IMG/VR virus record: IMGVR_UViG_3300037507_003370
Location: 142,292-206,291 of that record
Strand: one strand, 5' to 3'
DNA length: 64,000 bases
Origin: a virus
Taxonomy: Duplodnaviria; Caudoviricetes
Shown: positions 14,831 through 34,739 of the stretch, in pieces
Position numbering within the stretch: the stretch's first letter is position 1
Layout: the number at the start of each line of letters is the position of its first letter
Notes under the pieces: generated by a model
Told to the model about the DNA's origin: nothing
Seen by the model: only the letters and a program-made list of their open reading frames with translations
Databases searched by the model: none
Made by a program: the position numbers and the translations under genes

Positions 14831-14836
14831 GATGAA

Positions 14837-15061: not shown

Positions 15062-15666
15062 GGTATATATTTAAAAAGTTCTGGATGATGTATTCCGTGA
15101 AAACCAAATGGTATATTATTTTTATCGTAATCGCCAACTTCTATCGAAAATCTATACCCTAATTCCGTTGGAGCAAATTTACATCCACAATCTTCAAAGT
15201 ATTTTCTGTAATAAAATGCCAATATGAAATCTTCTGGTAGATCTTTCCTTACTCCAGCCATTAGGATTTCGTTATAATCAATATTAGGAATCAGATTTTT
15301 CTGTGCAGCAAGAAATTTCTTACTTCTCAAACTAAATCCACCATTTCCGCAAATATGATTAAATGGAGGCCAAGGAGCGCCTATGTAGTCATATTCTAGA
15401 AATTCTGGCGTCCAAGCATTAGGGTTTATTATGAAACCGTCCCACTGAATGACTAAAACATATGATGTAGATATAATATATGGTAATTTATTTATAATAA
15501 ATTGACTATAGTCTACAGTATTTTTTAGCGTTTGGTTCTTAATAAGAACAGTATCAGCGAACTCAGCATAATGTTCACATGTTTTTATCGCTTTTTCTGT
15601 CTCTTCTATTTTTATAGACGTTGTAGAGAACAGTGTAACATGCTTCATATTTAATTTTTTAGCCAT
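15058..15666 (-). CDS. DUF5672-like glycosyltransferase-associated protein
   Basis: IQWDGF, YDYIGAPW, GNGGFSLRS, PED, FGFH motifs. Confidence 0.8.
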   Translation of the reverse strand: MAKKLNMKHVTLFSTTSIKIEETEKAIKTCEHYAEFADTVLIKNQTLKNTVDYSQFIINKLPYIISTSYVLVIQWDGFIINPNAWTPEFLEYDYIGAPWPPFNHICGNGGFSLRSKKFLAAQKNLIPNIDYNEILMAGVRKDLPEDFILAFYYRKYFEDCGCKFAPTELGYRFSIEVGDYDKNNIPFGFHGIHHPELFKYIP

Positions 15667-15688
15667 ACAAATATAATAATTAGTAGGC

Positions 15689-15716
15689 TTGACCTGTCAA
15701 ACAAAAACTATATATA
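15689..15716 (+). promoter_or_regulatory. Possible promoter for the plus-strand GT cassette (TTGACC-N16-TATATA)
   Basis: Lies in the divergent gap ~55 nt before the likely ATG at 15770. Confidence 0.35.
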
Positions 15717-15769
15717 TTATGCAGGGCGCTGGATTATTATATCAATACATAAACTCAAAACTAACCCAT

Positions 15770-17410
15770 ATGAATAACATAACGCTGGTTACTGGCATAT
15801 GGGATCTAAATAGGTCAAATGCCCCAGAGGGTTGGAATAGAGACTTTTCTCATTATAAGAGTAAGTTCATAGAACTGCTAACTGCTACACAACATATTAA
15901 TCTTTGTGTTTTTATAGATAAAGAAAATGAACAATTAGTCTGGGATTACAGAAAAAAAGAAAATACAAAAGTATATTACCATTCAAAAGAAGATTTTTCT
16001 GGTAATTTTTTCCCATTTTTTGATAGAGTTCAAGAAATAAGAAATAGTCCAGAATGGAAGGATCAAGTTGGATGGTTAAAGGATAGTACTCAGTCAACTA
16101 TGGAATTTTACAATCCCATGGTGATGAGTAAGATGTTCATGCTGCATAATGCAAAAATATTTAATCCATTTAATGATGATTATTATTATTGGATAGATGG
16201 AGGAATAACGAACACGATACATTATGGATATTTTAGTCACGATAAAGTTATAGAAAATGTTCCTAATATATGCGATAAATTCTTATTTGTTTGTTTTCCG
16301 TATGAAACAACCACAGAAATCCATGGTTTTGACATAAAAGGAATGAAGAAATATTGCAAGTCAGAAAATGTTGATAGAGTTGCCAGGGGAGGATTTTTTG
16401 GAGGCCATAAAGACTATATAGCAAAAACTAATGAAATATACTACGGTCTGCTTAATGATTCATTAAATGATGGATACATGGGTACAGAAGAAAGTATATT
16501 TACTATAATGACTTATTTGTATCCTGAAACTTTTAAATTTGAACTAATAGAAAATAATGGATTATTAGGAACGTTTTTTGAAAACTTAAAAAATAATTTC
16601 ATAAATTTATCAAAACCTAAATCTATAGAGGACAATAAACTTGTTCTTTATATTAATACTTTTAATTGTCCTAAACAATTAGAGCTATTAATAAATTCTT
16701 TTCATCAACATGATGTAAGATTTCTTCAAGATACAAAAATTATTTTAATAAATAACTCTACTGACGATATACTTCAATGTGATTATGATTTGTTAGTTAA
16801 TAAATATAATATGACCGAGATAAAAATGGGCAATCTTGGTGTTTGCGGAGGAAGACAATACGCTGCCGAACATTTTGATGCCTTAAATAATAAATATATG
16901 ATATTCTTTGAAGATGATATGTTATTAGATTTATCTGATACTAAATGTTCTTTTGGCTTCTCAAAAAATGTAAATAACTTGTTTACAAATATGCAAAGAA
17001 TAATGGATATAGAAAAATATGATTTCTTAAAACTAACATTTTCTGAATTTTATGGAGACAATCATTTACAATGGTCCTGGCATAACGTGCCAAGTCCAAG
17101 AAAAGAAGAATACTTTGGTAATATTAATGAAAAACCATTAACAAAATTTTCTCATATAAAATCTTATGATAAAGTCCCGTATATAGAGGGAGAGGTTTAC
17201 TATTCTAATTGGCCTCATATTATAGGTAAATCTGGAAATAAAAAGATGTTTCTGGATACCAAATGGACCTATCCATACGAACAAACATGGATGAGTCATT
17301 TTTATACATTAACTTTAGAAAAAACAATTAAACCAGCAATTTTATTATCTAGTCCAATAACACATAATAGGGTATATTTCTATGAAGGGTCACAAAGAAA
17401 AGAAAACTAA
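15770..17410 (+). CDS. Two-domain glycosyltransferase: HtrL/YibB-like N-terminus plus GT-A-like C-terminus
   Basis: TLVTGIWD, YNPMVMSK, YYYWIDGG, GGFFGG, TEESI; second domain FFEDD; start moved to MNNITL. Confidence 0.72.
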   Translation: MNNITLVTGIWDLNRSNAPEGWNRDFSHYKSKFIELLTATQHINLCVFIDKENEQLVWDYRKKENTKVYYHSKEDFSGNFFPFFDRVQEIRNSPEWKDQVGWLKDSTQSTMEFYNPMVMSKMFMLHNAKIFNPFNDDYYYWIDGGITNTIHYGYFSHDKVIENVPNICDKFLFVCFPYETTTEIHGFDIKGMKKYCKSENVDRVARGGFFGGHKDYIAKTNEIYYGLLNDSLNDGYMGTEESIFTIMTYLYPETFKFELIENNGLLGTFFENLKNNFINLSKPKSIEDNKLVLYINTFNCPKQLELLINSFHQHDVRFLQDTKIILINNSTDDILQCDYDLLVNKYNMTEIKMGNLGVCGGRQYAAEHFDALNNKYMIFFEDDMLLDLSDTKCSFGFSKNVNNLFTNMQRIMDIEKYDFLKLTFSEFYGDNHLQWSWHNVPSPRKEEYFGNINEKPLTKFSHIKSYDKVPYIEGEVYYSNWPHIIGKSGNKKMFLDTKWTYPYEQTWMSHFYTLTLEKTIKPAILLSSPITHNRVYFYEGSQRKEN

Positions 17411-18653
17411 TAGCATTTTTGTACAGATAGCATCTTATAGGGATCCTCAATTAATTCCAACATTAGAGGATATGATTAATAATGCTAAGTATCCAGAAAA
17501 TTTATCTATAGGAATAGCATGGCAACATCATCCAGACGATGATTTTGATAATCTGGATAAATACAAAAAAGATAAAAGATTTAAAATATTAGATATAGAT
17601 TATAAAGATAGTAAAGGTGTTTGCTGGGCCAGAAATGCTGTTCAGAAATTATATGATGGAGAAAAATATACCTTGCAAATAGATAGTCATCACAGATTTG
17701 CAAAAAATTGGGATGAAACTCTAATAGATATGTTAAAAGATTTACAAGATAAAGGTCATGAAAAACCTTTAATAACTTCTTATATTCCTAGTTTTGATCC
17801 AGAGAAAGATCCTGAGTTAAGAGTTCAAGAACCATGGAAAATGAATTTTGATAGATTCATACCAGAAGGAGCCATATTCTTTTTACCAGCATCTTTTGAT
17901 AGTTTTGATGCAAAAGATAGACCTCTTCAGGGCCGTTTTTATAGTGCTCATTTTGCTTTTACTATTGGTGAGTTTGCATTAGAGGTTCAGCATAATCCAA
18001 ACTATTATTTTCATGGAGAAGAAATAAGCATAGCCGTTAGGGCTTTTACTCACGGATACGATATATTTCATCCTCATAAGGTAGTTTGTTGGCATGAATA
18101 TACCAGAAAGGGAAGATCCAAGCAATGGGACGATGATAGTATGTGGGTTGACAGAAATAACGAGTCTCACAGGATTAACAGAGTTCTATTTGGCATGGAT
18201 GATGAATTTGATAATGTTAATTTTGAAATTTATGGTTTCGGAAACAAAAGAACACTACATGACTATGAAAAGTATGCAGGAATATCTTTTAGTAAAAGAG
18301 CAATTCAGCAAGAGACTCTTGATCATAAAGAACCACCAAATACACAAGTATCAGAAGACGAGTGGGAAAACAGTCTATTAAATATATTCAAACACTGCAT
18401 AGATATAGGATACTCCCAGGTTCCAGAAACAGATTATGACTTTTGGTGCGTTGCATTTAAAGACTCTGAAGGAAAAGATCTTCATAGACAAGACGCCGAC
18501 GCAGATGAAATAGAAAGAATGAAGAATGATCCTGACAAATATTGTAAAGTTTGGAGAGAGTTCCAAACAAAAATCAAACCTAAAAAATGGATAGTTTGGC
18601 CACACAGCGTAAGTAAAGGGTGGTGTGATCCAATTGAGGGAGATCTTCCTTGA
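17382..18653 (+). CDS. GlcNAc-transferase (Gnt1/GT60-like, Pfam GlcNAc family)
   Basis: IFVQIASYRD, GVCWARN, LQIDSHHRF..WD, FHGEEIS..RAFTHGYD. Confidence 0.8.
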   Translation: MKGHKEKKTNSIFVQIASYRDPQLIPTLEDMINNAKYPENLSIGIAWQHHPDDDFDNLDKYKKDKRFKILDIDYKDSKGVCWARNAVQKLYDGEKYTLQIDSHHRFAKNWDETLIDMLKDLQDKGHEKPLITSYIPSFDPEKDPELRVQEPWKMNFDRFIPEGAIFFLPASFDSFDAKDRPLQGRFYSAHFAFTIGEFALEVQHNPNYYFHGEEISIAVRAFTHGYDIFHPHKVVCWHEYTRKGRSKQWDDDSMWVDRNNESHRINRVLFGMDDEFDNVNFEIYGFGNKRTLHDYEKYAGISFSKRAIQQETLDHKEPPNTQVSEDEWENSLLNIFKHCIDIGYSQVPETDYDFWCVAFKDSEGKDLHRQDADADEIERMKNDPDKYCKVWREFQTKIKPKKWIVWPHSVSKGWCDPIEGDLP

Positions 18654-19396
18654 AAAACTATAGTGTTGGCATAACTACTTTTTCAAAAAGATTTGATCAT
18701 TTGTCTAAACTAGTTAATCAAATTAGACAATTAGATGATTGTGATATAATATTAACAATAAATGGAAATTATAATTGTGAATTTGATGAGGATTATAGGA
18801 AAAATGTTTTATCTTTATGCTCACAATATTCAAAAGTTTATCCAATATTCTTTCCTGAACAACGAGGTTTATCTAAGCTTTGGAATAGTATAGTCATACA
18901 TAGTAAAACCGATTGGATATTAATGCTTAACGATGACGTTGAGTTAACAGAAAATGAAATATTTACAATACTAAATAATTTACCAAAAGATAAACCAGAT
19001 ATAAAAAGAATAAATGGTACTTTTTCTCATTTTATCTTGCATAAAGACTGTATAGATGATCTTGGGTACTTTGATGAAAGATTGCTCGGTTTTGGAGAAG
19101 AGGATGGGGATATAGTATATAGATATATAGCTAAATACGACAGATGGTTAGAAGATATATGGGTACATGGTTTTACGAATTTATGCGTATCTAGTAGGGA
19201 TGAAAATATCAAACCTGGAGTAAGTAAGTATTCAGCGTTTAATAGAAATTTCTGTTTCCATAATAATGATTGCAAATATAAACCAGATGAAAATGGTATA
19301 TCAAGTATGTTTGGATACAAGATGACAAAAAATATACCAGATGAATCACAGTATTGTTATGAAAAGTTTTTTAAGCAACATAAACACGAATTATGA
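18650..19396 (+). CDS. GT2-like glycosyltransferase
   Basis: LMLNDD, GYFDERLLGFGEEDGD. Confidence 0.75.
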   Translation: MKNYSVGITTFSKRFDHLSKLVNQIRQLDDCDIILTINGNYNCEFDEDYRKNVLSLCSQYSKVYPIFFPEQRGLSKLWNSIVIHSKTDWILMLNDDVELTENEIFTILNNLPKDKPDIKRINGTFSHFILHKDCIDDLGYFDERLLGFGEEDGDIVYRYIAKYDRWLEDIWVHGFTNLCVSSRDENIKPGVSKYSAFNRNFCFHNNDCKYKPDENGISSMFGYKMTKNIPDESQYCYEKFFKQHKHEL

Positions 19397-19989
19397 ATAT
19401 AAATTTTATAACTCCTTTGTATAGGTACGATAATATACCAACAATATATGAAAATATTAATTCTATAACCTCAAATTTTAATTGGTACTTAATAGAAGGA
19501 TCTAATAAAATAGGAGACACTGATGTATCTCATATCTTAAAAGATAGCAGGGTGGTTTATCATAAAATAAATACTCAACAAATTTGGGGACATGAACAAA
19601 GGAATTTCTTTATCAAAAATATTGAATGCGTTAGTGACGATTGGTGTTATTTTTTAGATGACGATAATTTAATAACTCAAGATATTATTGATGTTATTAA
19701 TGATAAAGACAATTCTAACGCAGATATAATTCTTATGTCTCAAAAGATGGGGAATACAGATCAGACTAGACTATACGGACTTCTAGGACACTTAAGTTTA
19801 GGAAATTGTGATATAGGATCTTTTCTAATAAAATATAAAATCATCAAAAATACATACATATATAATGAAGATCAAAGAAATGCAGATGGTCATTATTGTG
19901 AACAATTAAATTCTATAAATAATATTAATATTAAATATTTGTTAAATAAATTTACTAAATATAATGCTTTATCGGATAAAATTTTATGA
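19393..19989 (+). CDS. GT2-like glycosyltransferase
   Basis: FITPLYR, YFLDDDN, NADG. Confidence 0.7.
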   Translation: MNINFITPLYRYDNIPTIYENINSITSNFNWYLIEGSNKIGDTDVSHILKDSRVVYHKINTQQIWGHEQRNFFIKNIECVSDDWCYFLDDDNLITQDIIDVINDKDNSNADIILMSQKMGNTDQTRLYGLLGHLSLGNCDIGSFLIKYKIIKNTYIYNEDQRNADGHYCEQLNSINNINIKYLLNKFTKYNALSDKIL

Positions 19990-20717
19990 AAAAAACTATA
20001 TCTCTTAATATGAAATTTTGGCACGATGGTCAAGAAGATTCCACAAGAACCAGAAATGTTATATATTGCTGGAATGATCTTAAAAAATTAAATACTTTTA
20101 TAAATAATCATAGTATAAATTTTAATTCTTCTTGTTATTTATTTGATTTTTCTCCAGAAAAAATTATAGACGATGCTATACATATCCCGTATCCCATTGG
20201 AGAATATAAAAAAGCAGAAAAAACTAATATTATATTAAAACAATATGTTAATAATCTAAATTATTTTATGATGTTCGATTCAGACACATTCTTTGACTCC
20301 CAAGACTATGATGCTCTAGTTAAAATTATAGATAATCTAGAAAAAAACGACATAATAACCTTTGACGCTGCTAAATTAGACGATATAAATAATTGTTTTA
20401 TTGATAATATTTTTAATAGAACTAATGCCAATTGGAATTATGCGTATTCTGGAGCAAAAGAAAACGGACCATTAAATGGATACAGAGGTGGTCTTGGAGG
20501 AGTATATATAATAGACACAAGTATACTATTAAATCTTGATGGTTTTGACGAAAAATATATTGGATGGGGAGGAGAGGATGGAGAAATGATGAATAGAATA
20601 TACAATTCTGGATTTTTAAATAATATTAAACCACAAAAAGATATAGCTCCATTCCACATGCCACACTTTTGCGATTACGGCAATGACAAATATTACCAGA
20701 GGTTTAAAGATGAATAA
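19986..20717 (+). CDS. GT2/GT7-like galactosyltransferase
   Basis: MFDSD, GFDEKYIGWGGEDGE. Confidence 0.75.
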   Translation: MKKTISLNMKFWHDGQEDSTRTRNVIYCWNDLKKLNTFINNHSINFNSSCYLFDFSPEKIIDDAIHIPYPIGEYKKAEKTNIILKQYVNNLNYFMMFDSDTFFDSQDYDALVKIIDNLEKNDIITFDAAKLDDINNCFIDNIFNRTNANWNYAYSGAKENGPLNGYRGGLGGVYIIDTSILLNLDGFDEKYIGWGGEDGEMMNRIYNSGFLNNIKPQKDIAPFHMPHFCDYGNDKYYQRFKDE

Positions 20718-21621
20718 AAAAGTTAAAATAGAATGTTGGTGGACTTCTTCTGAAAGTATCACAAAAAGAACGCTAGATCAATTTAATATCAATAATAATA
20801 TTTCAGATTTAGATTTTGTAACAGACTCAGATTATGAATGGTTAGTTATTTGTGGTAAACTACCATCGCATTTACAATCAAATTCTATTGATAAATCTAA
20901 AACAATTTTTTTCGGTATGGAACCCAGTTGGTCTCCTAATACAGACAAAAATGCTGCTGACTATAGTAAATATATTTGTACTCATAACAAAAGTATTTTT
21001 AATAATAAAGATGCAATATTTTTTGAAGAGCCAAATTATATGTTTTATGGTGGTCGAGGAGATGAAGGATGGGATATAAACAATATAAATAAAATGAATT
21101 TTGATAATAAATCTAAAGATTTAAGTATTATAGTAACAAAAAGAGGCAATCATTGGGGAGCCGTAAATATTTATGATCAAAGAGTTGCTCTTGGAGATGC
21201 ATTGACTAAATATAATGATATAGACATATATGGAACATTATGGGAAAATAATAATCAAAATATACATGGAGAAACATGGAATAAATTTGTTGGATTATCT
21301 GACTATAAATTTTCTGTTGCTCTAGAAAATACATCTGAAAATAATTATATCACAGAAAAATTTTATGATTGTTTATTAACTAATACTATTCCCATTTATC
21401 ATGGGGCCCCTAATGTGTCTGACTATTTTGACCCTAATGGCTTCGTTTATCTTCCAGACATATATGATACAACCAGTTGCGTAGAAATAATACGTAATTT
21501 ATTTGATAATATTGATAATGAATATCAGAAAAGAAAAAATGCGTGTATAAATAATAAGAACGTTTATTTGAATAAACATAATATAATCAATAAAATCAAA
21601 AACATTATTTACAATGAGTAA
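20710..21621 (+). CDS. GT10-like fucosyltransferase
   Basis: MEP; YKFSVALENTSENNYITEKFYDCLLTNTIPIYHG (alpha-1,3-fucosyltransferase motif); likely start MNKKVK. Confidence 0.85.
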   Translation: MNKKVKIECWWTSSESITKRTLDQFNINNNISDLDFVTDSDYEWLVICGKLPSHLQSNSIDKSKTIFFGMEPSWSPNTDKNAADYSKYICTHNKSIFNNKDAIFFEEPNYMFYGGRGDEGWDINNINKMNFDNKSKDLSIIVTKRGNHWGAVNIYDQRVALGDALTKYNDIDIYGTLWENNNQNIHGETWNKFVGLSDYKFSVALENTSENNYITEKFYDCLLTNTIPIYHGAPNVSDYFDPNGFVYLPDIYDTTSCVEIIRNLFDNIDNEYQKRKNACINNKNVYLNKHNIINKIKNIIYNE

Positions 21622-22495
21622 TTATATTGTAACAGCTATATACGACGGTCTTCATGGAACTAGTCTTGGAGGAAGAGCATCCAGAGGAGAGCACTATAGA
21701 CATAGCTTTAAATCAATAAGTAAGATTACTGATACCGAATATACAATATATACTAACGAGCATGATCCTATTAAAACATTTATGGTTGATAATATAAGTA
21801 ATGTAAAATATGATTTAAAAACTTATGATCTAAACAATTCAGAGTATTCTGCAAAAATAAATAATATTAAAGATATAGAATCAACTAAATCTTCTTCTCG
21901 ATGTATTGAATTACAATATTCTAAATTTACGTGGATTGAATCTTTAGCAAATTTAATAAATGAAGAAGACTACATATATTGGTTTGATGCTGGGTTGTCT
22001 TATAGTGGATTAATACCAGACAAGCATCTAGGCAATAAAGGATATCACGACTATAATTATTATTCTCCATTATTTAATAATCAATTTTTTAGTAATTTAA
22101 TTTCATATACGGATGAGTCTTTTTTTTGTATAGCAAAAGATAATGTTAACTTTTTTTGGGACGGAGGACTACCAGATAAATGGTATATAAATGGAAAAGA
22201 TTGTTCTAATCATATAATTGGTGGGCTATTTGGTGGAAAATCAAAAATAGTAAAGCAAGTCTGTTCATTATTTAGGTCTTTAGCAAATAATTTATTAGAC
22301 GATGAAAAAAATTTATATAGCGAAGAGAATATTTTAACTGTTTTATATTATAATCATAAAGAATTATTTAAAACAAAAACTTTTGATATATGGTGGCATG
22401 AAAATAATATTGTTGGCAATGTAGGAGAAGAAAGAGCAAAAGAACTACTATCTTCTACTAAAAGTTTTTATCATATACTTGAAGAGCTTCAGTGA
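21614..22495 (+). CDS. HtrL/YibB-like glycosyltransferase (paralog of the 15770 N-terminal domain)
   Basis: IVTAIYD, YIYWFDAG, GGLFGG, SEENIL. Confidence 0.65.
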   Translation: MSNYIVTAIYDGLHGTSLGGRASRGEHYRHSFKSISKITDTEYTIYTNEHDPIKTFMVDNISNVKYDLKTYDLNNSEYSAKINNIKDIESTKSSSRCIELQYSKFTWIESLANLINEEDYIYWFDAGLSYSGLIPDKHLGNKGYHDYNYYSPLFNNQFFSNLISYTDESFFCIAKDNVNFFWDGGLPDKWYINGKDCSNHIIGGLFGGKSKIVKQVCSLFRSLANNLLDDEKNLYSEENILTVLYYNHKELFKTKTFDIWWHENNIVGNVGEERAKELLSSTKSFYHILEELQ

Positions 22496-23193
22496 CTAGT
22501 GTTTTCAATTATCCAATCATAAATTGATGACACCTTCACATGTCCTGATATATCATCAAAATCACTGTCTGGCTTGCTGTCTGATGGAGATTTAACAATC
22601 GAGTTGATGCCTATTAGTTCACCAGTTTTTAAAAACAAGCCCCCACCGCTGTCACCAACAGCAGAGATGCCATTTAATTCTATGTTGGAGTTCGGATCGA
22701 ATTTACAAAAAACAAGATCGCCCATTGTGCCAAAAATCTTATTATTTGCTGCTCTTTTTTTAAAATCATATTTTATTGATCCAACTTGTCCATCGCCGGT
22801 TTTTCCATATCCTACAATTGTACATTCTTGATCTGTTTTTAGATCTTCTATATATAGTTCTGTTTTATTTTTAAATTCTGGAATTTCTACTTTTAACAAA
22901 GCAACATCAGAATTTTTATTTTTTATAATTTCTATTGGATTATATGATTGCCCATTAAATATAATATTAATATCTTTTTTATATTCAATAGAGTGTTTTG
23001 TTGTTAGTATCCAATTATTATTCAATAATACTCCACTAGAAAAAGTAGAGCCAGTTTCAATTTTTAAAACATTATTGAATTTTTCTCCATACTCTATATA
23101 TCTTTGATCGTCATATTTTTTATCTATTACTACTGCACTAGCTTCTGTTGTTACTATAAATAGTGCTAATAAAATTATAGATAAATATTTCAT
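22489..23193 (-). CDS. Trypsin-like (S1) serine protease with predicted signal peptide
   Basis: WILTTKH (His), SDVALL (Asp), GDSGGG (Ser); hydrophobic N-terminus MKYLSIILLALFIV; ATGA overlap with the actin stop. Confidence 0.88.
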   Translation of the reverse strand: MKYLSIILLALFIVTTEASAVVIDKKYDDQRYIEYGEKFNNVLKIETGSTFSSGVLLNNNWILTTKHSIEYKKDINIIFNGQSYNPIEIIKNKNSDVALLKVEIPEFKNKTELYIEDLKTDQECTIVGYGKTGDGQVGSIKYDFKKRAANNKIFGTMGDLVFCKFDPNSNIELNGISAVGDSGGGLFLKTGELIGINSIVKSPSDSKPDSDFDDISGHVKVSSIYDWIIENTSH

Positions 23194-24209
23194 AAAATTT
23201 TTGCAGCTATTAGACATCCCCTAGCAACAGAATGCAGTGGGTCTTTTGCATGTTTAATTTGTTCAATTTTAATTGGAAATGAATTTTCTTTAATCTTTTT
23301 ATTAAACGTTTCTATAAATCCTTTAGGTTGAGAAGTACCTCCAGATATTGCTATCGTTAATGGCTTCTTAAACTTTGGTAACATTTTATGGTCTTCTAAT
23401 GCCGCACATAACTGTTTTACCGTATAGTCTATTAATCTTTCATAATATGCCGATACCGCAGAGAGTATATGATTATCGTTCTTTTCTCCTATTGTGAAAT
23501 CCCCATGCTCTTTCTCTGCTTGAACAACACTATCCTCTTCTCCTGTTGCGACTGCACTCATTCTATCTATCCAGTCCCCAGATTTTGTTGTTGAAAAAGA
23601 TATTACTGGCTCTCCATTAAGCATTACGCATACATTTACCATACCAGCACCCCAAGACAGACCTATTCCCGTATAATTTTCTTCTGATAGTTCTGAATAG
23701 CACAGCGCCTCTGCTTCATATATTGCTTTTGCATTATATCCGCATTCTTTCAAAATATTTTTTACTAAATCCTCGTGGTATCCTACATTAAATTCTTCGT
23801 CTTCTTGATCAACAGGCTGTGCAGGAATACAGAATACTAATTTTTCATTCATTACCTGAGAAATTCCCACAACTTCTTTCAGAATAAAAGATAGTATCTT
23901 TCTTGCATCTTTTTCTTTTGGTGACACAACGCCTCTAAACATTGGCCTTTTAGCGCTTTCATTTCTCTCTAACGCTTGATCTATTGCATCTTGACCCAAC
24001 ACAATAAAAGAACCATCTTGATCTTTTATAAATGTTTTCCCATTTAGTCCTTTTTGTATCATTGTATTGGCTATACTTGTTGCTGGTTTGATAGCATAAA
24101 AAGCATCTCTGAAATCTCTGTATTCAATAGAATTAATTCCATTGTCAGCCTCGTCTGGACTTTTAGCTAATACTATATAAGAGGTACCAACATCTAAGCC
24201 TTTAGCCAT
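23190..24209 (-). CDS. Actin-fold ATPase resembling volactin/salactin (MamK/MreB superfamily)
   Basis: Phosphate-1 GLDVGTS, connect-1 EAEAL, phosphate-2 GLSWGAGMVN, adenosine ISGGTS, connect-2 DPLHSVARGC. Confidence 0.85.
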   Translation of the reverse strand: MAKGLDVGTSYIVLAKSPDEADNGINSIEYRDFRDAFYAIKPATSIANTMIQKGLNGKTFIKDQDGSFIVLGQDAIDQALERNESAKRPMFRGVVSPKEKDARKILSFILKEVVGISQVMNEKLVFCIPAQPVDQEDEEFNVGYHEDLVKNILKECGYNAKAIYEAEALCYSELSEENYTGIGLSWGAGMVNVCVMLNGEPVISFSTTKSGDWIDRMSAVATGEEDSVVQAEKEHGDFTIGEKNDNHILSAVSAYYERLIDYTVKQLCAALEDHKMLPKFKKPLTIAISGGTSQPKGFIETFNKKIKENSFPIKIEQIKHAKDPLHSVARGCLIAAKIL

Positions 24210-24552
24210 TTGAATCTCCTTTTAAATTTTTTAGTTTATTGATATTATTATCAATATCATCTTCTATATATTGTGTTTTATATATATCGTCACAAAATTT
24301 AGTTACACCTTTTACATTTGTGTCGGTTACATATACAGTATCATCAATTAATATTTTGCTCATTTTTTTCTTATTATCTTTTGGAATAATATTTTTGATT
24401 TCATAATCATTAGATTGTTTTTCTATCTTATGGCTATGGCTACTAATAGTTTCAGTATTTTTATTTTTTGCATATAAATATCCTATTGTTATTCCTAAAT
24501 TAAATATAGTTATATAAACTAAAAATATCAACAATAAATCTATTGTATCCAT
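24202..24552 (-). CDS. Single-pass membrane protein coupled to the actin gene
   Basis: TM segment LLLIFLVYITIFNLGITIGYLY; 8-nt overlap with the actin start, whose RBS lies in its 3' end. Confidence 0.7.
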   Translation of the reverse strand: MDTIDLLLIFLVYITIFNLGITIGYLYAKNKNTETISSHSHKIEKQSNDYEIKNIIPKDNKKKMSKILIDDTVYVTDTNVKGVTKFCDDIYKTQYIEDDIDNNINKLKNLKGDSNG

Positions 24553-25463
24553 AATTTAAAATCACCAGGATTTATTATACCATATCCTTCGTATTTTTTA
24601 TTATACGCATAAACAGGATTTGATAGATGTATCGATCCTATTTTTAGTCTTTCAATATATTTATCATAATTCAAAATTATATTTCTATTTTTCATATAAG
24701 AACATAGTAAAGCAGCACATCCCGCAACAAATGGATTGCTCATACTTGTACCACTCATTGTGGCATAGCTATTATTTGGATAACAGCTGATTATATCATG
24801 TCCTGGAGCTAAAAAATCTAAAGTTTCCCCACTACATGTAAAACTTGTTCTATTCATAGTTTTATCTATAGCTCCAATACTAACTGTATTATTGTATTTT
24901 GCAGGGTACATTATATCAACATTTTCTCCACTATTACCAGCGGCACAAAATATTCCACAATTCTTTTTTGCTGCATAATTAATAGCATTTTCAAAAACTT
25001 TGCTATATACAGAAGATCCTAGAGACATAGTAATAATATCAGCACCGTTATCTACTGCCCAATATATTGAATCAATAATCCATGAGTCCATTCCTGAGCC
25101 ATCATCTCCAAGGCACTTTACTGGCATGATTTTAGCTTTTGGTGCAACTCCTACCATTCCTTTTCCATTATTTGACGCGGCTATTGTTCCAGCGACATGC
25201 GTTCCATGACCACACCTATCAATTGGTGGACTATTTTTATCTACAAAATTTTTACCATCAACTAGGTTATCTTTCAAGTCTAAGTGATCTAAATCGCAGC
25301 CAGAATCTAAAACAGCAACAACCACATTTTCTCCCTGAGAATAATTCCATTGAGACACAACATTCAATACATCTAATTCCCAACCAATAAATTGAGAATC
25401 GTTTGGAGACAATCCGTATATATGTTCTTCTGTATATGGAAGTAATTTAATTTTTTTATTCAT
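24540..25463 (-). CDS. Subtilisin-family (S8) protease, intracellular (ISP) type
   Basis: VAVLDSG, HGTHVAGT, AAGN, SGTSM; no signal peptide or propeptide; N-terminal KLLPY resembles the ISP LIPY/F motif. Confidence 0.92.
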   Translation of the reverse strand: MNKKIKLLPYTEEHIYGLSPNDSQFIGWELDVLNVVSQWNYSQGENVVVAVLDSGCDLDHLDLKDNLVDGKNFVDKNSPPIDRCGHGTHVAGTIAASNNGKGMVGVAPKAKIMPVKCLGDDGSGMDSWIIDSIYWAVDNGADIITMSLGSSVYSKVFENAINYAAKKNCGIFCAAGNSGENVDIMYPAKYNNTVSIGAIDKTMNRTSFTCSGETLDFLAPGHDIISCYPNNSYATMSGTSMSNPFVAGCAALLCSYMKNRNIILNYDKYIERLKIGSIHLSNPVYAYNKKYEGYGIINPGDFKLWIQ

Positions 25464-26247
25464 TTTCGTGTTTTTTTATTGTTTCTATTATCCATGGTTT
25501 AAAAGTTGATATTCTAGTATGAGCACTCTCGTCTCCATAATTTGAATCTGGTTTTTTGTCTGTCGATGTTACGAACGAATTTATTCCAGCTAATTTTCCA
25601 TCTATAAATAGACCTCCTCCACTATCTCCGTGTGCTGGTAAAAATTCTAATATAGTTTGATTTTTTTTATTCTCAGTCATATCGCACATAAGCATATATT
25701 CATTTACAGATATTATTCTATTTGTTCCAGCTCTTTTTTTTAAGTCAAAAGTTTTTGCTCCCGTTATCCCGGTGCCATACATTCCATAACCAGATATGCT
25801 GCATATCTTATTTTCTTCTTTTTTATCTGAATATAATATTGGAAATTCATTAATTTCCTCTACTTTCGAAGATAATCTTCCTATAGCTATATCATTCATG
25901 CTCACTGGAATATTTTCATTAAAATCTTTATGTATTATAATAAGATCCAAGTCATACCTTTTATTATCTTCTCCAATAACTATATACTGATCTTTACTAC
26001 AGCTAATTACATGAGCGGCTGTTAGTATCCATTTGGGTTTTATTAAAACGGCAGACGCTGAAATTTCAAGATTCTTTTCTTTAGGACTTTTTATGTTTCC
26101 ATAGATTTTTACTATGGTTTTATATTTTGCAGCATGGTTTAAATATTTTGATTCATCTACATCATGTCTTATAGTTCCAGCACATAGAATTTTTGTGCTA
26201 ATAATAACTATTATAATCCATAGCCATTTATTTTTTGTTAGTAACAT
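25456..26247 (-). CDS. Trypsin-like (S1) serine protease with predicted signal peptide
   Basis: WILTAAHV, NDIAI, GDSGGG; hydrophobic N-terminus followed by GTIRHD. Confidence 0.9.
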   Translation of the reverse strand: MLLTKNKWLWIIIVIISTKILCAGTIRHDVDESKYLNHAAKYKTIVKIYGNIKSPKEKNLEISASAVLIKPKWILTAAHVISCSKDQYIVIGEDNKRYDLDLIIIHKDFNENIPVSMNDIAIGRLSSKVEEINEFPILYSDKKEENKICSISGYGMYGTGITGAKTFDLKKRAGTNRIISVNEYMLMCDMTENKKNQTILEFLPAHGDSGGGLFIDGKLAGINSFVTSTDKKPDSNYGDESAHTRISTFKPWIIETIKKHENE

Positions 26248-26269
26248 TTTATATCTCCAAGTTATTTTG

Positions 26270-26578
26270 CTATGGTCTTGTTTTTACTTTTTTAAAGTAA
26301 TTTTCACAATCTGATATTATATCTTTATTCCAGCTTTGATAATTCATTAAATGACCAAACGTAAAATGACATGGATCATCGCATAGAGTTATCAAATTTT
26401 CTAAATCTAATTCCTTACTAGGGTCTAAATGAACTGGTACTATATGATGCACTTCTAATTTTTTATTTCTTCCACAAGCAGCGCAATTTGGATTGTTTTT
26501 TAAATGCTGTTTTCTAATTTTTGACCAATCTGGTGACCTTTCTGCAAATCTAATTTTTTTAAAAATTAATCCAAACAT
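26270..26578 (-). CDS. HNH endonuclease
   Basis: CAACG..EVHHIVP..NLITLC..CHFTFGH. Confidence 0.88.
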   Translation of the reverse strand: MFGLIFKKIRFAERSPDWSKIRKQHLKNNPNCAACGRNKKLEVHHIVPVHLDPSKELDLENLITLCDDPCHFTFGHLMNYQSWNKDIISDCENYFKKVKTRP

Positions 26579-26994
26579 TTTAATCTATTCTTAATTTCTG
26601 TTGTTGATACGCCTTTAGTATAAGGTATATACACTAATACTATATTGTTTTGTTCTAACCACTGCTGAGTAAAGCTCATTTGGCCATAATAATCTTTTTT
26701 TGCCCAATCATCTCCTATGGCTATGATACTGGGCTTAGTCTGCATTATTGCTGGCTTACTATCTTTACCTTCAATATTCGGTATTACTAGATCAACATAA
26801 CAGCATAATTCTAAACATTTTTTTCTTTCTTCATAAGACATTATTGGTTTTTGTTTTTTGTATTCGAATATAAATTCGTCTGTATTCAATGAAACAACGA
26901 CTTTGTCTGATATCATTTTGCATTGCTTTAAAAAATTCATATGCCCATAGTGAAGTAGGTCGAATGTCCCACCTGTGTATAAGATTTTATCCAT
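26566..26994 (-). CDS. Cytidylyltransferase (TagD/RfaE-like HxGH family)
   Basis: YTGGTFDLLHYGH, ERKKCL, GDDW, GVSTTEI. Confidence 0.9.
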   Translation of the reverse strand: MDKILYTGGTFDLLHYGHMNFLKQCKMISDKVVVSLNTDEFIFEYKKQKPIMSYEERKKCLELCCYVDLVIPNIEGKDSKPAIMQTKPSIIAIGDDWAKKDYYGQMSFTQQWLEQNNIVLVYIPYTKGVSTTEIKNRLKCLD

Positions 26995-27693
26995 TTATTG
27001 TCTTTGTCTCCATTTCTTTATATATGTATAATCAATATTTGGATCTATTTTTATTGTAAAATCTGCAATAACAAGTCCAGGCATATCCAAGTATTGTTTT
27101 GAAATTTCTAATCTATCAAATAAAATAGACCATGCACGTTCCCACGCACATGATCCATTTTTGCAATCTGCTTTTTTTATACTTTTATAAGTATCAGATT
27201 CTATAATCTTTAAGAAAGTTTCTCTTGATGTAGAGAAACAATTATAGTGTACAATATCCCACTTTTTTGACCAACTCTCAGCAATATCTATTTGTGAGTT
27301 CAGCCAATCAAAAGATGGCTGATGTTCTTGCCATCCGCTTTGTCTACCTTCGAAAATTATAGCTGTATTTGTTGGTATTTTATAAAGGATATCTATGTGT
27401 TTTTTAATTATGAATGAATCTTGTATGAATGTAAAATATTGAAAATCATTGCTGTATTTTCTATATCCAATATCGTAAGCTCCAACCTCATAATTTACAT
27501 TATTAATATCTTCTATTATTACATTTTGATTTATTGTTTTTATTTTATCAAAATATGACTTATCTTCTGATTTATTGTCTATAACAATAGGAATGCTATC
27601 CGGATAATTCTCTGTTATTGATGTAATATTTTCGATAATATCATTGCATTTTTCAGAATATTTTGTAGCTATTATTATAGCGTGTGAGTTCAT
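26995..27693 (-). CDS. Glycosyltransferase-like protein
   Basis: VIDNKS, YEVGA, FIQDS, AWERAW; located in the glycan-gene context. Confidence 0.5.
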   Translation of the reverse strand: MNSHAIIIATKYSEKCNDIIENITSITENYPDSIPIVIDNKSEDKSYFDKIKTINQNVIIEDINNVNYEVGAYDIGYRKYSNDFQYFTFIQDSFIIKKHIDILYKIPTNTAIIFEGRQSGWQEHQPSFDWLNSQIDIAESWSKKWDIVHYNCFSTSRETFLKIIESDTYKSIKKADCKNGSCAWERAWSILFDRLEISKQYLDMPGLVIADFTIKIDPNIDYTYIKKWRQRQ

Positions 27694-27696
27694 TTG

Positions 27697-28599
27697 TTAC
27701 CTCATAGGGAAATTGCCTAGCACTCTACCTTTCTGTGTACGCATTACATATCCTTTTCTTATCATATACGGCTCTATACTGTTTTCTATGGTCTCAATAG
27801 CTATTCCACTGATAGAAGATATGCTTTTTAACCCTAGCGGTGTTCCTCTATGTTTTTGTAAAACCTCAATATATAACCTATCATAGATATCAAAACCATT
27901 ACTATCTACACCCTGATTTAGGAATACTTTATTTATGTCCTGTTCTTTATCCTGATGATATGAGGTATAGCTTTGATACCAATTTAATCTGGCATTAAGA
28001 ATTCTAGGAGTACCCTTGCTTCTTTTAGCAATTTCTAATAAGTCAGATTCATTTATCATTAGTCCGAGCTTTTTTGCGTTCGACTCCGCTAGTTTAGCTA
28101 AGTCATTATCGCTATAAAAGATCAAATGTTCTTTAATTTGAAACCTATCATAGAATGGCTGACTTAGATTTCCTCCAGTTGTTGTTGCTCCTATTAATGT
28201 AAAAGGAGGAATATCTATTTGCTCTGGCTCCTTTTCTAAAACTAGATTTAGAACAAAATCTTCCATAACAGGATACAAGAATTCTTCTACCACTATTGGT
28301 AGTCTATGTATTTCATCTATAAAAAGAACAGAGTTTCTCGATATATTCATTAAATACGGTAAGATATTTTTTATTGCTCTAATATTAGCCGCATTAACGA
28401 CATATATGTTTGCATTTAGCTCATTCGCTATAGCACTTGCCATAGTAGTTTTACCAAGCCCAGGAGGCCCGTCTATTAAAATATGCGGCATCGCATTGCC
28501 AGACTTTAAACACCCTGACACAATGATCCTCATTCTCTCAACAACTTCTGATTGTCCAATAATATCATCAAATTTTGATGGCCTAACTATGTTCGACAT
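27697..28599 (-). CDS. ruvB: Holliday-junction branch-migration AAA+ ATPase RuvB
   Basis: RPSKFDDIIGQ, GPPGLGKTT, FIDEIHRL, TLIGATT, KGTPR, IEPYMI..G...RTQKGR; likely start MSNIVRP. Confidence 0.93.
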   Translation of the reverse strand: MSNIVRPSKFDDIIGQSEVVERMRIIVSGCLKSGNAMPHILIDGPPGLGKTTMASAIANELNANIYVVNAANIRAIKNILPYLMNISRNSVLFIDEIHRLPIVVEEFLYPVMEDFVLNLVLEKEPEQIDIPPFTLIGATTTGGNLSQPFYDRFQIKEHLIFYSDNDLAKLAESNAKKLGLMINESDLLEIAKRSKGTPRILNARLNWYQSYTSYHQDKEQDINKVFLNQGVDSNGFDIYDRLYIEVLQKHRGTPLGLKSISSISGIAIETIENSIEPYMIRKGYVMRTQKGRVLGNFPMR

Positions 28600-28960
28600 T
28601 TTGTTCTCCAATTTTTTTAAGTGCAATCTTCAATATTTGTACAGGATCTGTTATGTCATTTTCTTTTATTGCTTTTTCAACAGCATATGTTGCTTCTTGT
28701 TTTGAAAAACCATAATTAAGCAATCCAGAAATTGCTTTCTTTATATAGTCTTTTTCATTTGTAATTACTGCGTTCTTTTTTGTTTTATATTTAATCTTGA
28801 AAGAATCTACAGTTTTAACTTTCAATATTTTTTTACAGTCACATACGATTAAGAATTTGTCTGTTTTTGCTTCATGTATGGATAACCAATGGTTATATCC
28901 ACAATTCGGGCATGAATATTTTAAATGTAAATCGTATTCAGTTGGCTTTAAATTTTTCAT
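28583..28960 (-). CDS. Zinc ribbon fused to RuvA domain III (RuvB-binding domain)
   Basis: CPNC...CDC N-terminus; C-terminal KAISGLLNYGFSKQEA...ILKIALKKI matches RuvA_C; overlaps the ruvB start. Confidence 0.7.
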   Translation of the reverse strand: MKNLKPTEYDLHLKYSCPNCGYNHWLSIHEAKTDKFLIVCDCKKILKVKTVDSFKIKYKTKKNAVITNEKDYIKKAISGLLNYGFSKQEATYAVEKAIKENDITDPVQILKIALKKIGEQNVEHS

Positions 28961-29351
28961 CTGGGTTATCTTTTATCCAAAAAATAAAATCATTCGACTC
29001 ATCATCAAAACCACTATCCAATACGCCCTTATTGACTAAATTATTTAGCATATTGCTTATCATTCTAGAATTTAGGCTATCTATAAATTTTGAAAACTGA
29101 ATATCCGATATGATATATCTTATGTCATTTGTTTTTTTGTTTTTTTGTTGCTTGACATATTCTTTTAATAAAACTTCTGATTCTTCATAAGAAAGTATTT
29201 TGTTTAGTTCGCCTTCTTCCTCAGAAGTTATTTCATAGATAGAATCATTCTGCTTGATATCTCCAAATGTATTAAATACTAAAATTCTAGTAGAATTAAT
29301 AAATTGCTCGATATCTTTAATGACATACCACCCATCATCTGTAGAACTCAT
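28938..29351 (-). CDS. Hypothetical protein
   Basis: 137-aa ORF with GGAA RBS; C-terminus resembles 48429..48851. Confidence 0.6.
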   Translation of the reverse strand: MSSTDDGWYVIKDIEQFINSTRILVFNTFGDIKQNDSIYEITSEEEGELNKILSYEESEVLLKEYVKQQKNKKTNDIRYIISDIQFSKFIDSLNSRMISNMLNNLVNKGVLDSGFDDESNDFIFWIKDNPDEKFKAN

Positions 29352-29359
29352 GATATTTC

Positions 29360-29773
29360 CTAATTAAGTATCTCGTACAATCCCTTATAATATTTTGGCT
29401 GCTGTAAAAAATACCCAGCATGACTTTGTAGATGTTTGACATATTCACTCGCTAATTTGTTTTGAATAAAATGTTTCTTTTTCCATATTCCTTCGTTCCA
29501 ATAGTTGTTCCCCAAGTACAGGGACTTTTTATCATCCGCTGTACTGGAGAACGAACTATTCACAGGTAACGCAATCGGAGAAAATCCATCTGGAAGTAAA
29601 GGAGTATTATAGTTAGGTAGGTTCTTCAACGCATCCTCTATAACTTCCTTAGTTATCCATTTATATTCTATCTTATTGAGCAGACTATCCATATATTTCT
29701 TGATCCATTCAGTATCTATCTGAAAGTAGAATTTGTAGGGATCATTATCTTCTGGATTGTCAGGATTGTTCAT
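29360..29773 (-). CDS. Hypothetical protein
   Basis: 137-aa ORF in operon. Confidence 0.55.
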   Translation of the reverse strand: MNNPDNPEDNDPYKFYFQIDTEWIKKYMDSLLNKIEYKWITKEVIEDALKNLPNYNTPLLPDGFSPIALPVNSSFSSTADDKKSLYLGNNYWNEGIWKKKHFIQNKLASEYVKHLQSHAGYFLQQPKYYKGLYEILN

Positions 29774-29776
29774 AAT

Positions 29777-30955
29777 TTAACCCACACAAAACTTATCGCT
29801 AATCTGGCTTGCCAAGTCTCTGGCAGCACCAGAAAGGAATCGGTTGTTGCTGAAATACAACGCTGTGGATGCTTGGTTGAGGTACTCGACCACCGTTTTT
29901 AAAAGTTTGGCCTGCTCCCCACTCAAAACTAAACCACTGTCACCAGCATGAGAAGGCAATACTGGCGACGGATCACCATAAGCCTTTTCAAACTTGTTGT
30001 TGTAAGCCTTTGAAAGATTCTCGTTGTAACTATTTGGAGTCTCGTTATAAGACGCCCAAGCACTACTCATAGAGTTCTTTTGACCACAACAATCAGAGGT
30101 ACTATTTGTATAGACTGCCCTTTGAGTATTAAGTTCATTCAGAATTTTTGCAGCAGCATCAACCGTTACAGGAAGTCCAGTAGCATCAGACTTCTTATAG
30201 GTTTTTCTCCACTGGTCAAACCAAGCATCACTAGTAGCATTAGGAACAATAGTTACTGTTGCTGGTTGACCATTTAATGCAGAGATTAAATCTTGAACAT
30301 TAACGCTCTGACCAGTTGAGCCATTTAGAATACTGGTAAAGTAAGATGCTTTCTTTTCCCAGCACTTACGCCACCAAGTATAAGGAACTCGATAAATCTG
30401 ATTAATCTTGATGGCTCGTGCATCTCCACCAAAGTAATTTACCAGTTTCTTCTGAATACCATTCCATGTGGTTTGATTAACTAGAGTTCGACTTTGATCA
30501 TCCATAATCCAATAAATCTGATAACCATTACGAGTATCAACTACCCAACTTGGCTTAACAGCAAAGTTATTGATCTTATCAAGAGCAGACTGCTTAAACT
30601 TCATAACCTCTTTTGAGGGCAGATAGTTTCCAGCAGCGTCTCGTCCAGCATCAATATCTACAAAACAACAAGCAATGGTATTGATAGCATACTGCTTTCG
30701 TCCACCGTTAACATAGAAGTAAGCATCAGAGTTGCTATTCTCATTAGCATTACGAACCTCAACAAGATCATTAGTATGCTTCATGCTACTAATTTTTCTG
30801 CGAGGATCTCCATTATAACAAAAAATATGACCAGCATTTAGATTAAAAGAATTTAGAAACTGCTCTTGCAGTCCATTCCACGAATTAGCATAACGCTTTT
30901 CAGCACTGCTATTAGCCTTATCATACGGATTAAAACCAAGTTCCATCTTAAACAT
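29777..30955 (-). CDS. RepB'-type (AEP superfamily) primase-like protein
   Basis: YFYVNGG, FVDID, PSWVVDTRNGYQIYW, IYRVP. Confidence 0.75.
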   Translation of the reverse strand: MFKMELGFNPYDKANSSAEKRYANSWNGLQEQFLNSFNLNAGHIFCYNGDPRRKISSMKHTNDLVEVRNANENSNSDAYFYVNGGRKQYAINTIACCFVDIDAGRDAAGNYLPSKEVMKFKQSALDKINNFAVKPSWVVDTRNGYQIYWIMDDQSRTLVNQTTWNGIQKKLVNYFGGDARAIKINQIYRVPYTWWRKCWEKKASYFTSILNGSTGQSVNVQDLISALNGQPATVTIVPNATSDAWFDQWRKTYKKSDATGLPVTVDAAAKILNELNTQRAVYTNSTSDCCGQKNSMSSAWASYNETPNSYNENLSKAYNNKFEKAYGDPSPVLPSHAGDSGLVLSGEQAKLLKTVVEYLNQASTALYFSNNRFLSGAARDLASQISDKFCVG

Positions 30956-30993
30956 ATTTCACCGTTACCTGTAATTGTAAACAACCCAAACCA

Positions 30994-31030
30994 ATATCGG
31001 GATAGCAACCTCTACTATCATTAGCGATAT
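30994..31030. other. Stem-loop (ATATCG/CGATAT enclosing GATAG/CTATC)
   Basis: Pairings read directly; lies just 3' of the tRNA-like element on the minus strand. Confidence 0.45.
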
Positions 31031-31034
31031 AAAA

Positions 31035-31120
31035 TAGCGGGAGAGGAATTGAACCTCTCTCAAATAGCGTTTGTTGAGTTTCCCAACCAGAGGCTATTAT
31101 CTTAGTCACCAGACTCCACT
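31035..31120 (-). ncRNA. tRNA-like element with an enlarged anticodon arm
   Basis: T-arm AGAGG-TTCAATT-CCTCT; imperfect acceptor AGTGG/CCGCT; stem AATAGC/GCTATT enclosing 24 nt. Confidence 0.4.
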
Positions 31121-31133
31121 TTATTTTTATTAA

Positions 31134-31997
31134 TCAGTTATAATCGTCGTAATCTTCCTCATCATCTTCTTCAGCATAAGCCTCTTCGTCATCATCCTCA
31201 TTCCATCCCCAATCATAGTCATTATCATAATCTTCGTCCTCGTCCTCATAATCATCCTCACTAAAGACAGATGAATAAAGAGGCTTGAGAAGTTCGCCTT
31301 GATACTCTCCGACAACTTCATATCGGCAAGTGCGAAGTTTCTCATAGTTACAATCACTAGGAACGCTCACAACATCAGCAGGATTAATCTTAACGATAAC
31401 AATCTTGTCACCGCTTTCAAGACTACCATAACCGGCTACATAATTCAATGCACCAGCATGAAGCCCATTAGAACAACCTCGACCACGATCATCATCAACC
31501 TTTGATCGAGTCATTTCACAAACATTACCAACATGATTATCAAATACTCCGCGATATTTATCCATGTAATCTGCTCTGACTGCCTTATAGGCAAGGAAAT
31601 AACCATCCTCAGTAATGGGCAGATGCTCATGCTCAAGGAAATCATAGAGTTCCTTTTGACTCTGCATACTGGGATTTTCCATAAGATTATTCAGGAAATT
31701 AACAAGAGGCTGGAAAGGCAGACCCTTACTCATGAACTCCAGAATTCTCTTGCTAATAGACCCATGAACAACTTCGCCCTCATAAGTTACCTGACCATTC
31801 TTGATCTCAACAAGACCGTCACTAAAAGTAGCAACTGCCTTCTCAATATCAATCATTTCAAGCAACTCGTCAGATGTTGCAGTAGGCAATGCCTCCAGAA
31901 TCATCTTATAGTTAAGGTGGTCAGGCAGAACTTGAAAACTCTTGTTGTTCAGCACAACCGTCAGATTACCATCAACAAACATAAACGGAACACTCAT
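31134..31997 (-). CDS. rIIB: rIIB-like protein
   Basis: NPSMQSQKELYDFL, LPITEDGYFLAYKAV, CSNGLH, KINPADVVSVPSD; downstream of rIIA; acidic tail. Confidence 0.9.
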   Translation of the reverse strand: MSVPFMFVDGNLTVVLNNKSFQVLPDHLNYKMILEALPTATSDELLEMIDIEKAVATFSDGLVEIKNGQVTYEGEVVHGSISKRILEFMSKGLPFQPLVNFLNNLMENPSMQSQKELYDFLEHEHLPITEDGYFLAYKAVRADYMDKYRGVFDNHVGNVCEMTRSKVDDDRGRGCSNGLHAGALNYVAGYGSLESGDKIVIVKINPADVVSVPSDCNYEKLRTCRYEVVGEYQGELLKPLYSSVFSEDDYEDEDEDYDNDYDWGWNEDDDEEAYAEEDDEEDYDDYN

Positions 31998-32033
31998 GAT
32001 ATAAACTCCTATTGTTTTTAGTTACCTTGTGAA

Positions 32034-34694: not shown

Positions 34695-34711
34695 CTTTAT
34701 GTCTCCAAATG

Positions 34712-34732: not shown

Positions 34733-34739
34733 TAGTCCA

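Follow-up and report, generated by a model that had tools for sequence, protein, structure and literature searches.

Why should a phage carry an actin-like ATPase gene in the midst of protease genes? The question is raised by a stretch of 64,000 nucleotides from an uncultured virus of the Caudoviricetes (IMG/VR record IMGVR_UViG_3300037507_003370, positions 142,292 to 206,291), which we call the window. On its minus strand five genes follow each other, encoding in order of transcription an exported trypsin-like protease (tryp1), an intracellular subtilase, a small single-pass membrane protein (the anchor), an actin-like ATPase and a second exported trypsin-like protease (tryp2; table 1). A first-pass annotation had read them as a translationally coupled operon, in which a membrane-anchored filament positions proteolysis on both sides of the membrane. 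At the level of the genes this description was accurate: the five open reading frames are intact, co-oriented and located where they had been placed, direct reading of the sequence gives junction overlaps of 8, 13, 8 and 4 nucleotides, and the domains and catalytic triads are as described. Comparison across related phages, in combination with complex prediction, points to a smaller functional unit, very probably consisting of the anchor and the actin, with the tail of the anchor binding the actin. For the wider proposal, that in the window's clade this module tethers a filament and has a periplasmic trypsin as its partner in an assembly spanning the membrane, we see roughly even chances.

The anchor and the actin

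The anchor gene lies directly upstream of the actin gene in essentially all of about 230 related loci. It was found at all 63 informative loci of the window's clade, by which we mean the actin clade with the module downstream of RuvB (loci counted as informative had at least 2.5 kb on both sides), and at nearly all of 87 others drawn on the window's actin. In the latter set the members of the anchor family are 97-137 residues long. Their hydrophobic helix is N-terminal and closes with the motif G[YF]xxG[RK]; a linker that varies among members leads from it to a C-terminal domain of about 50 residues, which is conserved. The conserved columns are G20, I69, D70, L90, G91, D98, K106, L107, L110 and K111 (numbered as in the window's protein, itself a member). 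Here some five residues precede the transmembrane helix, which contains G20xxxG24 and is followed by the linker and the C-terminal domain. No DNA-binding domain was detected in the anchor by Pfam search. A few loci (designated L and a number) show small variations in spacing, with an extra open reading frame of 106 residues between anchor and actin in L165, L167 and L168, and a gap of 118 nucleotides in L033.

The orientation of the anchor is predicted to be N-out and C-in, since a natural fusion, described below, places an exported trypsin N-terminal of the transmembrane helix. The distribution of charges agrees, with acidic residues before the hydrophobic helix and basic residues after it. 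This call, like those on signal peptides, rests on sequence features and on the natural fusion, without a dedicated predictor.

The first-pass annotation had proposed a multimer prediction of the membrane protein's tail with the actin as a check, and its outcome supports, as far as a model can, that the two proteins bind. With alignments for both partners the median ipSAE was 0.77 while the best of three controls reached 0.00; this score is the model's own confidence and may partly reflect memory of solved actin-peptide complexes, which has to be set against the proposed binding. The same mark is reached by 58 of 80 solved complexes and by 2 of 110 mismatched pairs. Three runs had at least 88% of their contacts in common, with a partner pLDDT of at least 57. 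On the anchor side the predicted interface covers residues 82-111, and so includes the conserved L90, G91, D98, K106, L107, L110 and K111. On the actin side it involves the N-terminal hairpin (25-33) and three helices, namely one at 99-114, the hinge helix (171-179) and the C-terminal one (323-338). As judged from the list of contacts and from the secondary structure, rather than from a superposition on solved complexes, this surface would correspond to the groove between subdomains IA and IIA. The coupling of the actin to a membrane protein, as annotated, is thus upheld both by its recurrence and by the predicted binding.

The assignment of the actin itself is clear. Its score with the Volactin model PF25216 is 226.8 bits (cut-off 35), with residues 1-336 aligning to model positions 1-321, and its homologues bear the same precomputed assignment. 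The motifs LDVGTS (from residue 5), SWGAGM (185) and SGGTS (289) are invariant in 49 sequences, and phosphate-1, phosphate-2 and adenosine motifs together with an actin-like fold place the protein in the actin-like branch. The top Foldseek matches are MamK, MreB and BeeR, and also actin, with probability 1.0 and TM-scores of about 0.5-0.57. These were obtained with an AlphaFold2 monomer model of moderate quality (pLDDT 72.5), in which residues 1-36 are poorly modelled, a further point to be held against the structural part of the argument. The MreB/Mbl model PF06723 is touched over the partial stretch 65-134 with 20.9 bits, below its cut-off of 27, and no PDB entry matched the actin sequence at E <= 1. 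In the protein database 2397 homologues were found, most of them about 70% identical; the phage contigs that carry them reach some 300 kb. Conservation is far higher in the actin than in the anchor, the mean column identity over 49 phage homologues being 77% versus 27%. Family membership and this very high conservation lead us to infer that the protein forms filaments.

In the phage genome collection the only matches to the actin belong to two uncultured huge phages, LR756511 and LR745208, at 34-35% identity. The C-termini of the open reading frames upstream of these two genes resembled the anchor by eye, and were discarded as candidates when the anchor profile gave non-significant E-values of 0.16-0.55. 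A blastn search of the same collection with the 3.8-kb stretch of the five genes found no match.

Proteases beside the pair

Both trypsins are exported S1 peptidases as judged from their profile matches, each above the PF00089 cut-off of 20.6 bits, their triads and their N-termini, where one or more basic residues precede a hydrophobic run in the manner of a Sec signal peptide. The triad of tryp1 (H79/D119/S209) is invariant in eight relatives; that of tryp2 is H75/D104/S190 in the numbering of a 242-residue form. The export annotated for both proteins is in keeping with these features. The longer form of tryp2 would begin at an alternative in-frame ATG at 23217, while the start at 23193 agrees with the 4-nucleotide overlap seen in the orthologue of locus L006. 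A separate actin clade located next to ThyX (L003, L017, L036, L044, L067, L072 and L077) carries an S1 protease of another kind, Trypsin_2, at a distance of 3-5 kb from the anchor and the actin; no close relationship of it to tryp1 was detectable.

How firmly do these proteases belong to the pair? An initial survey took in those 80 IMG/VR loci whose actin most resembles that of the window; as only L006 and L007 among them showed adjacency, we had regarded the proteases as incidental. A wider search reversed this view for the window's own clade: the 80 loci come from other actin clades, and the absence had resulted from this choice of sample. The window's own clade was assembled from a search on the trypsin side, where the tryp1 family numbers 395 IMG/VR relatives, and from a search with a clade member's actin, which gave 410. 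A tryp1-family trypsin lies within 3.5 kb at 58 of the 63 informative loci (about 92%), and a subtilase is present at 34. The shared synteny takes the form of RuvB, an optional Trx, a small gene and the actin. Around it the gene order varies, with at least six arrangements: anchor-actin followed by an optional HNH gene, trypsin and an optional subtilase; anchor-actin-subtilase-trypsin; trypsin-anchor-actin with an optional subtilase; the window's order of trypsin-subtilase-anchor-actin, which recurs in L216, L219, L221 and L225; forms with a second trypsin, as in the window and L006; and forms in which trypsin and anchor are fused. On the actin tree the trypsin swaps between upstream and downstream positions several times. 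The check on gene neighbourhoods proposed in the first-pass annotation has therefore a divided outcome, the anchor being nearly universal and the trypsin common in the window's clade, while other clades show no protease adjacency.

The fused forms connect the trypsin with the anchor directly, which fits a link across the membrane. A single open reading frame of 382 residues encodes signal peptide, trypsin, linker, transmembrane helix and conserved tail, and the actin gene follows 2 nucleotides later. In-frame fusions of this kind occur in two groups (L104/L105/L106/L235 and L213/L215/L232) that are 47% identical to each other. One lineage is represented in the database by a cluster whose 18 sequences come from 16 contigs, and two variants at 92.7% identity make up the other. 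A protein-word search for more fused forms returned the query's own cluster only, the second lineage having been found through the loci. The fusions show that these phages stably tolerate a periplasmic protease tethered to the actin-binding anchor. It is mainly because of these diverged fusions, and of an adjacency kept through repeated reordering, that we give the trypsin close to an even chance of being a real partner of the anchor-actin module in the window's clade.

The remaining two proteases stand differently. The second trypsin was found only in the window and, at the same position, in L006 and L007, whose actins are 75% identical to that of the window and whose loci read trypsin-anchor-actin-trypsin, with no subtilase. 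A pattern search with tryp2 alone gave no IMG/VR relatives. It is a paralogue of tryp1 (33% identity, BLASTP 8e-34) specific to this lineage. The subtilase has its triad (D53/H86/S240) along with N177, and neither it nor the actin has a hydrophobic N-terminal segment. An intracellular serine protease, 7Y6M, is its best PDB match, and in the Bacillus intracellular serine proteases (ISPs) 2X8J and 2WV7 the counterpart of its residues 4-70 is the segment 3-66. Like the Bacillus ISPs (2WV7, 2X8J, 7Y6M), it combines the lack of a signal peptide with a short N-terminal extension in place of the long I9 propeptide, consistent with the cytoplasmic ISP-type enzyme of the first-pass annotation. In contrast to them, it is encoded by a phage, beside a trypsin or an actin. 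The sequence LLPY at residues 7-10 may be the equivalent of the inhibitory LIPY/F motif of ISPs. Where present in the clade, the subtilase always adjoins the trypsin or the actin; it is an optional cytoplasmic add-on, and that it should serve the same function as the anchor and the actin seems doubtful to us. The five genes do not hold together as one conserved unit, given that the subtilase is found at 34 of the 63 clade loci and in none of five genomes from other clades, and tryp2 in the window's own lineage alone. What survives of the proposed link between filament and proteolysis across the membrane is the part that concerns the trypsin, which is adjacent to the pair or fused to the anchor; the part that concerns the subtilase is less well supported.

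Candidate roles of the anchor and the actin

The obligate unit would be a two-gene cytoskeletal module, formed by a small bitopic inner-membrane protein and a conserved actin-like ATPase of the Volactin family. The anchor would expose a few residues outside, cross the membrane with a GxxxG-type helix and extend a tail into the cytoplasm. There the prediction has its C-terminal domain extend the N-terminal hairpin of the actin by one beta-strand and insert a short basic helix between the hinge helix, helix 99-114 and the C-terminal helix, which line a groove in the IA/IIA cleft. Filaments would be tethered in this way to the cytoplasmic face of the membrane. A Sec-exported S1 trypsin would be the periplasmic partner, fused in frame in two lineages to the outside end of the anchor, so that a cytoplasmic filament might hold or position a periplasmic protease towards some presumed target, in a logic resembling that of MreB, RodZ and a periplasmic enzyme. 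A bolder form of this reading, which we hold to be less likely than not, would be a trans-envelope device in which the filament, by way of the anchor tail, positions or patterns a periplasmic serine protease, free or fused, on the host inner membrane during infection, as a viral counterpart of MreB-RodZ directed at proteolysis in the envelope.

Several observations weigh against the inclusion of a protease in this device. On the midpoint-rooted actin tree protease adjacency is limited to one clade, and it may reflect a single ancestral placement of the pair where a trypsin already resided. Elsewhere the pair is flanked by dUTPase on one side and 5'-3' exonuclease/DnaB on the other, or else neighbours ThyX, and the tryp1-family trypsin is distant: five of five large actin-bearing genomes of other clades encode one PF00089 trypsin, 12-77 kb from the actin, and none of the five has a subtilase. 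Relatives of the window carry RuvB, optionally Trx and HNH, the trypsin and optionally the subtilase with no actin, and the actin is entirely lacking from five genomes that encode the trypsin and are complete or nearly so. It follows that the protease can do without the filament, and the trypsin is the more constant occupant of the locus. Local shuffling could be driven by the HNH gene that travels with the trypsin, in the absence of any functional link. Finally, the overlaps between the five genes are the norm of this genome, since 23 of 46 same-strand junctions overlap (positions 1..36633) and the upstream HNH, cytidylyltransferase and RuvB genes are packed equally tightly. Translational coupling is therefore not special to these five genes.

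The same observations can be accommodated by an explanation that leaves the proteases aside, which we regard as a serious possibility, if short of a probable one: the anchor and the actin would be a self-contained device for membrane-associated replication or recombination of phage DNA, the proteases unrelated accessory genes at the variable RuvB locus, and the fusions tolerated accidents. In most other clades the pair is embedded in a replication module (PolA, gp32, UvsX, dUTPase, anchor, actin, 5'-3' exonuclease, DnaB and ribonucleotide reductase), and in the window's clade it lies near RuvB. The presence of the trypsin, with or without the subtilase, at the same locus in actin-less relatives, and its company of an HNH gene, are also as expected. 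Fusion would be easy to arrive at, for in L007 the stop codon of the trypsin and the start of the anchor overlap by 4 nucleotides, and the loss of a single stop codon would join the two. There is moreover a precedent in AlpA/AlpC, whose adaptor gene likewise precedes the actin gene and whose two products the phage requires to replicate efficiently (PMC4446434); the same paper discusses the use of host MreB by phi29 with the membrane protein p16.7. However, a role confined to replication leaves unexplained that the fused architecture has been kept across the divergence between the two groups, and among the variants of one of them, and that protease adjacency persists through repeated reordering. 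The lack of a detected DNA-binding domain in the anchor and of centromere-like repeats also speaks against it: between positions 22000 and 27000 only two-copy repeats of low identity were found, with no centromere-like array. For the same reasons, no DNA-binding adaptor and no repeats, a partition role of the ParMRC type appears unlikely from the sequence.

Hijacking of host morphology or division is a less convincing alternative, and in our judgement an improbable one. The pair would here act as a membrane-bound, MreB-like polymer, for example to hold or enlarge the infected cell, with the proteases either cutting envelope proteins or unrelated. The Pfam family is named for volactin, a cell-shape determinant of Haloferax (PMC10869688), the nearest solved folds are those of MamK and MreB, and the polymer would be tethered to the membrane. 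However, the match to the MreB model stays below its cut-off, no link to host shape proteins was found, and the genes around the pair concern DNA metabolism, not envelope synthesis. Least probable of all, to the point of being nearly dismissed, is the obligate five-gene machine first proposed, with a filament coordinating proteolysis on both membrane sides for S-layer or wall remodelling or for egress: the five genes are intact and co-oriented, the subtilase keeps to the side of the trypsin or the actin, and the window's order recurs in four other loci, yet the subtilase is missing from 29 of the 63 clade loci and from the five other-clade genomes, tryp2 has its narrow distribution, the proteases persist in actin-less genomes, there is no evidence on the type of host wall, and no finding bears on an S-layer, a proteinaceous wall, a compartmentalised host or virion egress.

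Setting of the locus and relation to known systems

The five genes belong to a tightly packed block running leftward in the genome of a large, uncultured, aquatic phage of about 30% G+C (table 1). We identify it as T4-like because the window also encodes RIIA and RIIB, an ATP-dependent ligase, UvdE, RuvB, many glycosyltransferases, a tmRNA and a tRNA. The HNH gene upstream of tryp1 has counterparts directly beside the trypsin in most clade loci (L088-L248), on whichever side of the actin pair the trypsin stands. It is a recurrent neighbour of the trypsin in the window's clade, probably not a functional part, and it may mobilise the trypsin cassette. HNH or LAGLIDADG domains are also found in inteins of the ribonucleotide reductase large subunits of related phages (L001, 13484-17410; L003, 1-2707). 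The glycosyltransferase genes opposite tryp2 form an island that is kept in L006 and L007, where enzymes of GT10 and GT7C type were also called. One phage contig with the actin pair, L005 (GCA_009919195.1), forms part of a bacterial metagenome-assembled genome in its NCBI entry, under the label "bacterium" or Candidatus Elulimicrobium, probably through carry-over in binning.

Table 1. Genes of the anchor-actin locus and other features of the window.
Feature	Position	Strand	Size	Evidence and remarks
Glycosyltransferase island	15689-22495	+		seven consecutive genes, mostly overlapping; several of glycosyltransferase type (HtrL/YibB-like, GlcNAc-transferase PF11397, others without family)
tryp2, second exported trypsin-like protease	22489-23193	-	234 residues	PF00089 9.4e-16, 58.7 bits (open reading frame 22489-23217)
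Actin-like ATPase	23190-24209	-	339 residues	Volactin PF25216 6.2e-67, full length
Single-pass membrane anchor/adaptor	24202-24552	-	116 residues	no Pfam family; one N-terminal hydrophobic helix
ISP-type intracellular subtilase	24540-25463	-	307 residues	Peptidase_S8 PF00082 2.4e-56; optional cluster member
tryp1, exported S1 trypsin-like serine protease	25456-26247	-	263 residues	PF00089 2.8e-18, 67 bits
HNH homing-endonuclease gene	26270-26578	-		PF01844 2.3e-08; just upstream of tryp1
RuvB-like AAA+ ATPase	27697-28626	-		RuvB_N 2.3e-47, RuvB_C 7.1e-18; all three RuvB domains; synteny landmark of the cluster locus, a few genes from RIIB/RIIA
RIIB/RIIA	31134-34694	-		
tmRNA, phage-borne	46499-46849	-		tag peptide GEVNLALAA
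tRNA-Ile	47621-47696	-		anticodon TAT

Among known systems, AlpA/AlpC of the Corynebacterium glutamicum prophage CGP3 comes close in organisation, as it also joins a phage actin-like ATPase to a small, co-oriented adaptor gene directly upstream. The CGP3 operon is expressed early, and its adaptor attaches to the filament (PMC4446434). AlpA, by contrast, is a soluble DNA-binding adaptor recognising repeats upstream of its operon, while the adaptor described here is a single-pass membrane protein, the comparison being one of architecture and not of sequence. With the type II plasmid partition system ParM/ParR/parC the module shares an actin-like ATPase and a small adaptor whose C-terminal helix is predicted to occupy the IA/IIA groove; ParR is reportedly bound by ParM in this same region. 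In contrast to that system the adaptor gene comes first, its product is anchored in the membrane and does not bind DNA as far as its domains reveal, and no iterated centromere accompanies it, in a T4-like phage of lytic type and not a plasmid. The MreB-RodZ elongasome likewise combines a cytoplasmic actin-like filament, a single-pass membrane protein and an enzyme acting in the periplasm. RodZ has a cytoplasmic N-terminal helix-turn-helix domain, a transmembrane helix and a periplasmic C-terminus. The predicted orientation of the anchor is the opposite, its architecture is not that of RodZ, and the putative partner is a protease and not a cell-wall synthase.

The Volactin model matched by the phage actin derives its name from volactin (HVO_2015), and some homologues also faintly touch the model of its fellow haloarchaeal protein salactin. 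Volactin and salactin are chromosomal archaeal proteins, studied for cell shape and for DNA-related roles; neither paper on them refers to phages, and the passages searched name no membrane adaptor or protease partner. PhuZ and TubZ are comparable as cytoskeletal polymers of large phages, thought to organise infection spatially, and differ by their tubulin fold; we know of no membrane anchor gene or protease partner for either. In the literature searched we found no account of a Volactin-family actin in phages, of its anchor or of a protease link, in agreement with the first-pass annotation, which knew of no described phage system linking an actin filament with proteases on both sides of the membrane. 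The pairing of a phage actin-like ATPase with an adaptor is thus known, and what is new here is an adaptor that is a membrane anchor, with a probable periplasmic partner.

The phage cytoskeletons described to date are, to our knowledge, mainly tubulins (PhuZ/TubZ) and a small number of actin-like proteins, AlpC among them, and all have been connected with the positioning of DNA. The Volactin-family actin considered here is abundant, as its 2397 database homologues and the 410 IMG/VR relatives of one clade member attest, is unusually conserved for a phage protein, and is paired at nearly all loci with a membrane anchor and not with a DNA-binding adaptor. If the protease link should prove wrong, it would still have to be asked, for the pair alone, how T4-like phages of aquatic hosts make use of a filament tethered to the membrane. 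The trypsin-anchor fusions, for their part, give a testable hypothesis, that a cytoplasmic polymer may organise an enzyme across the membrane, and offer ready-made constructs for studies of topology and localisation.

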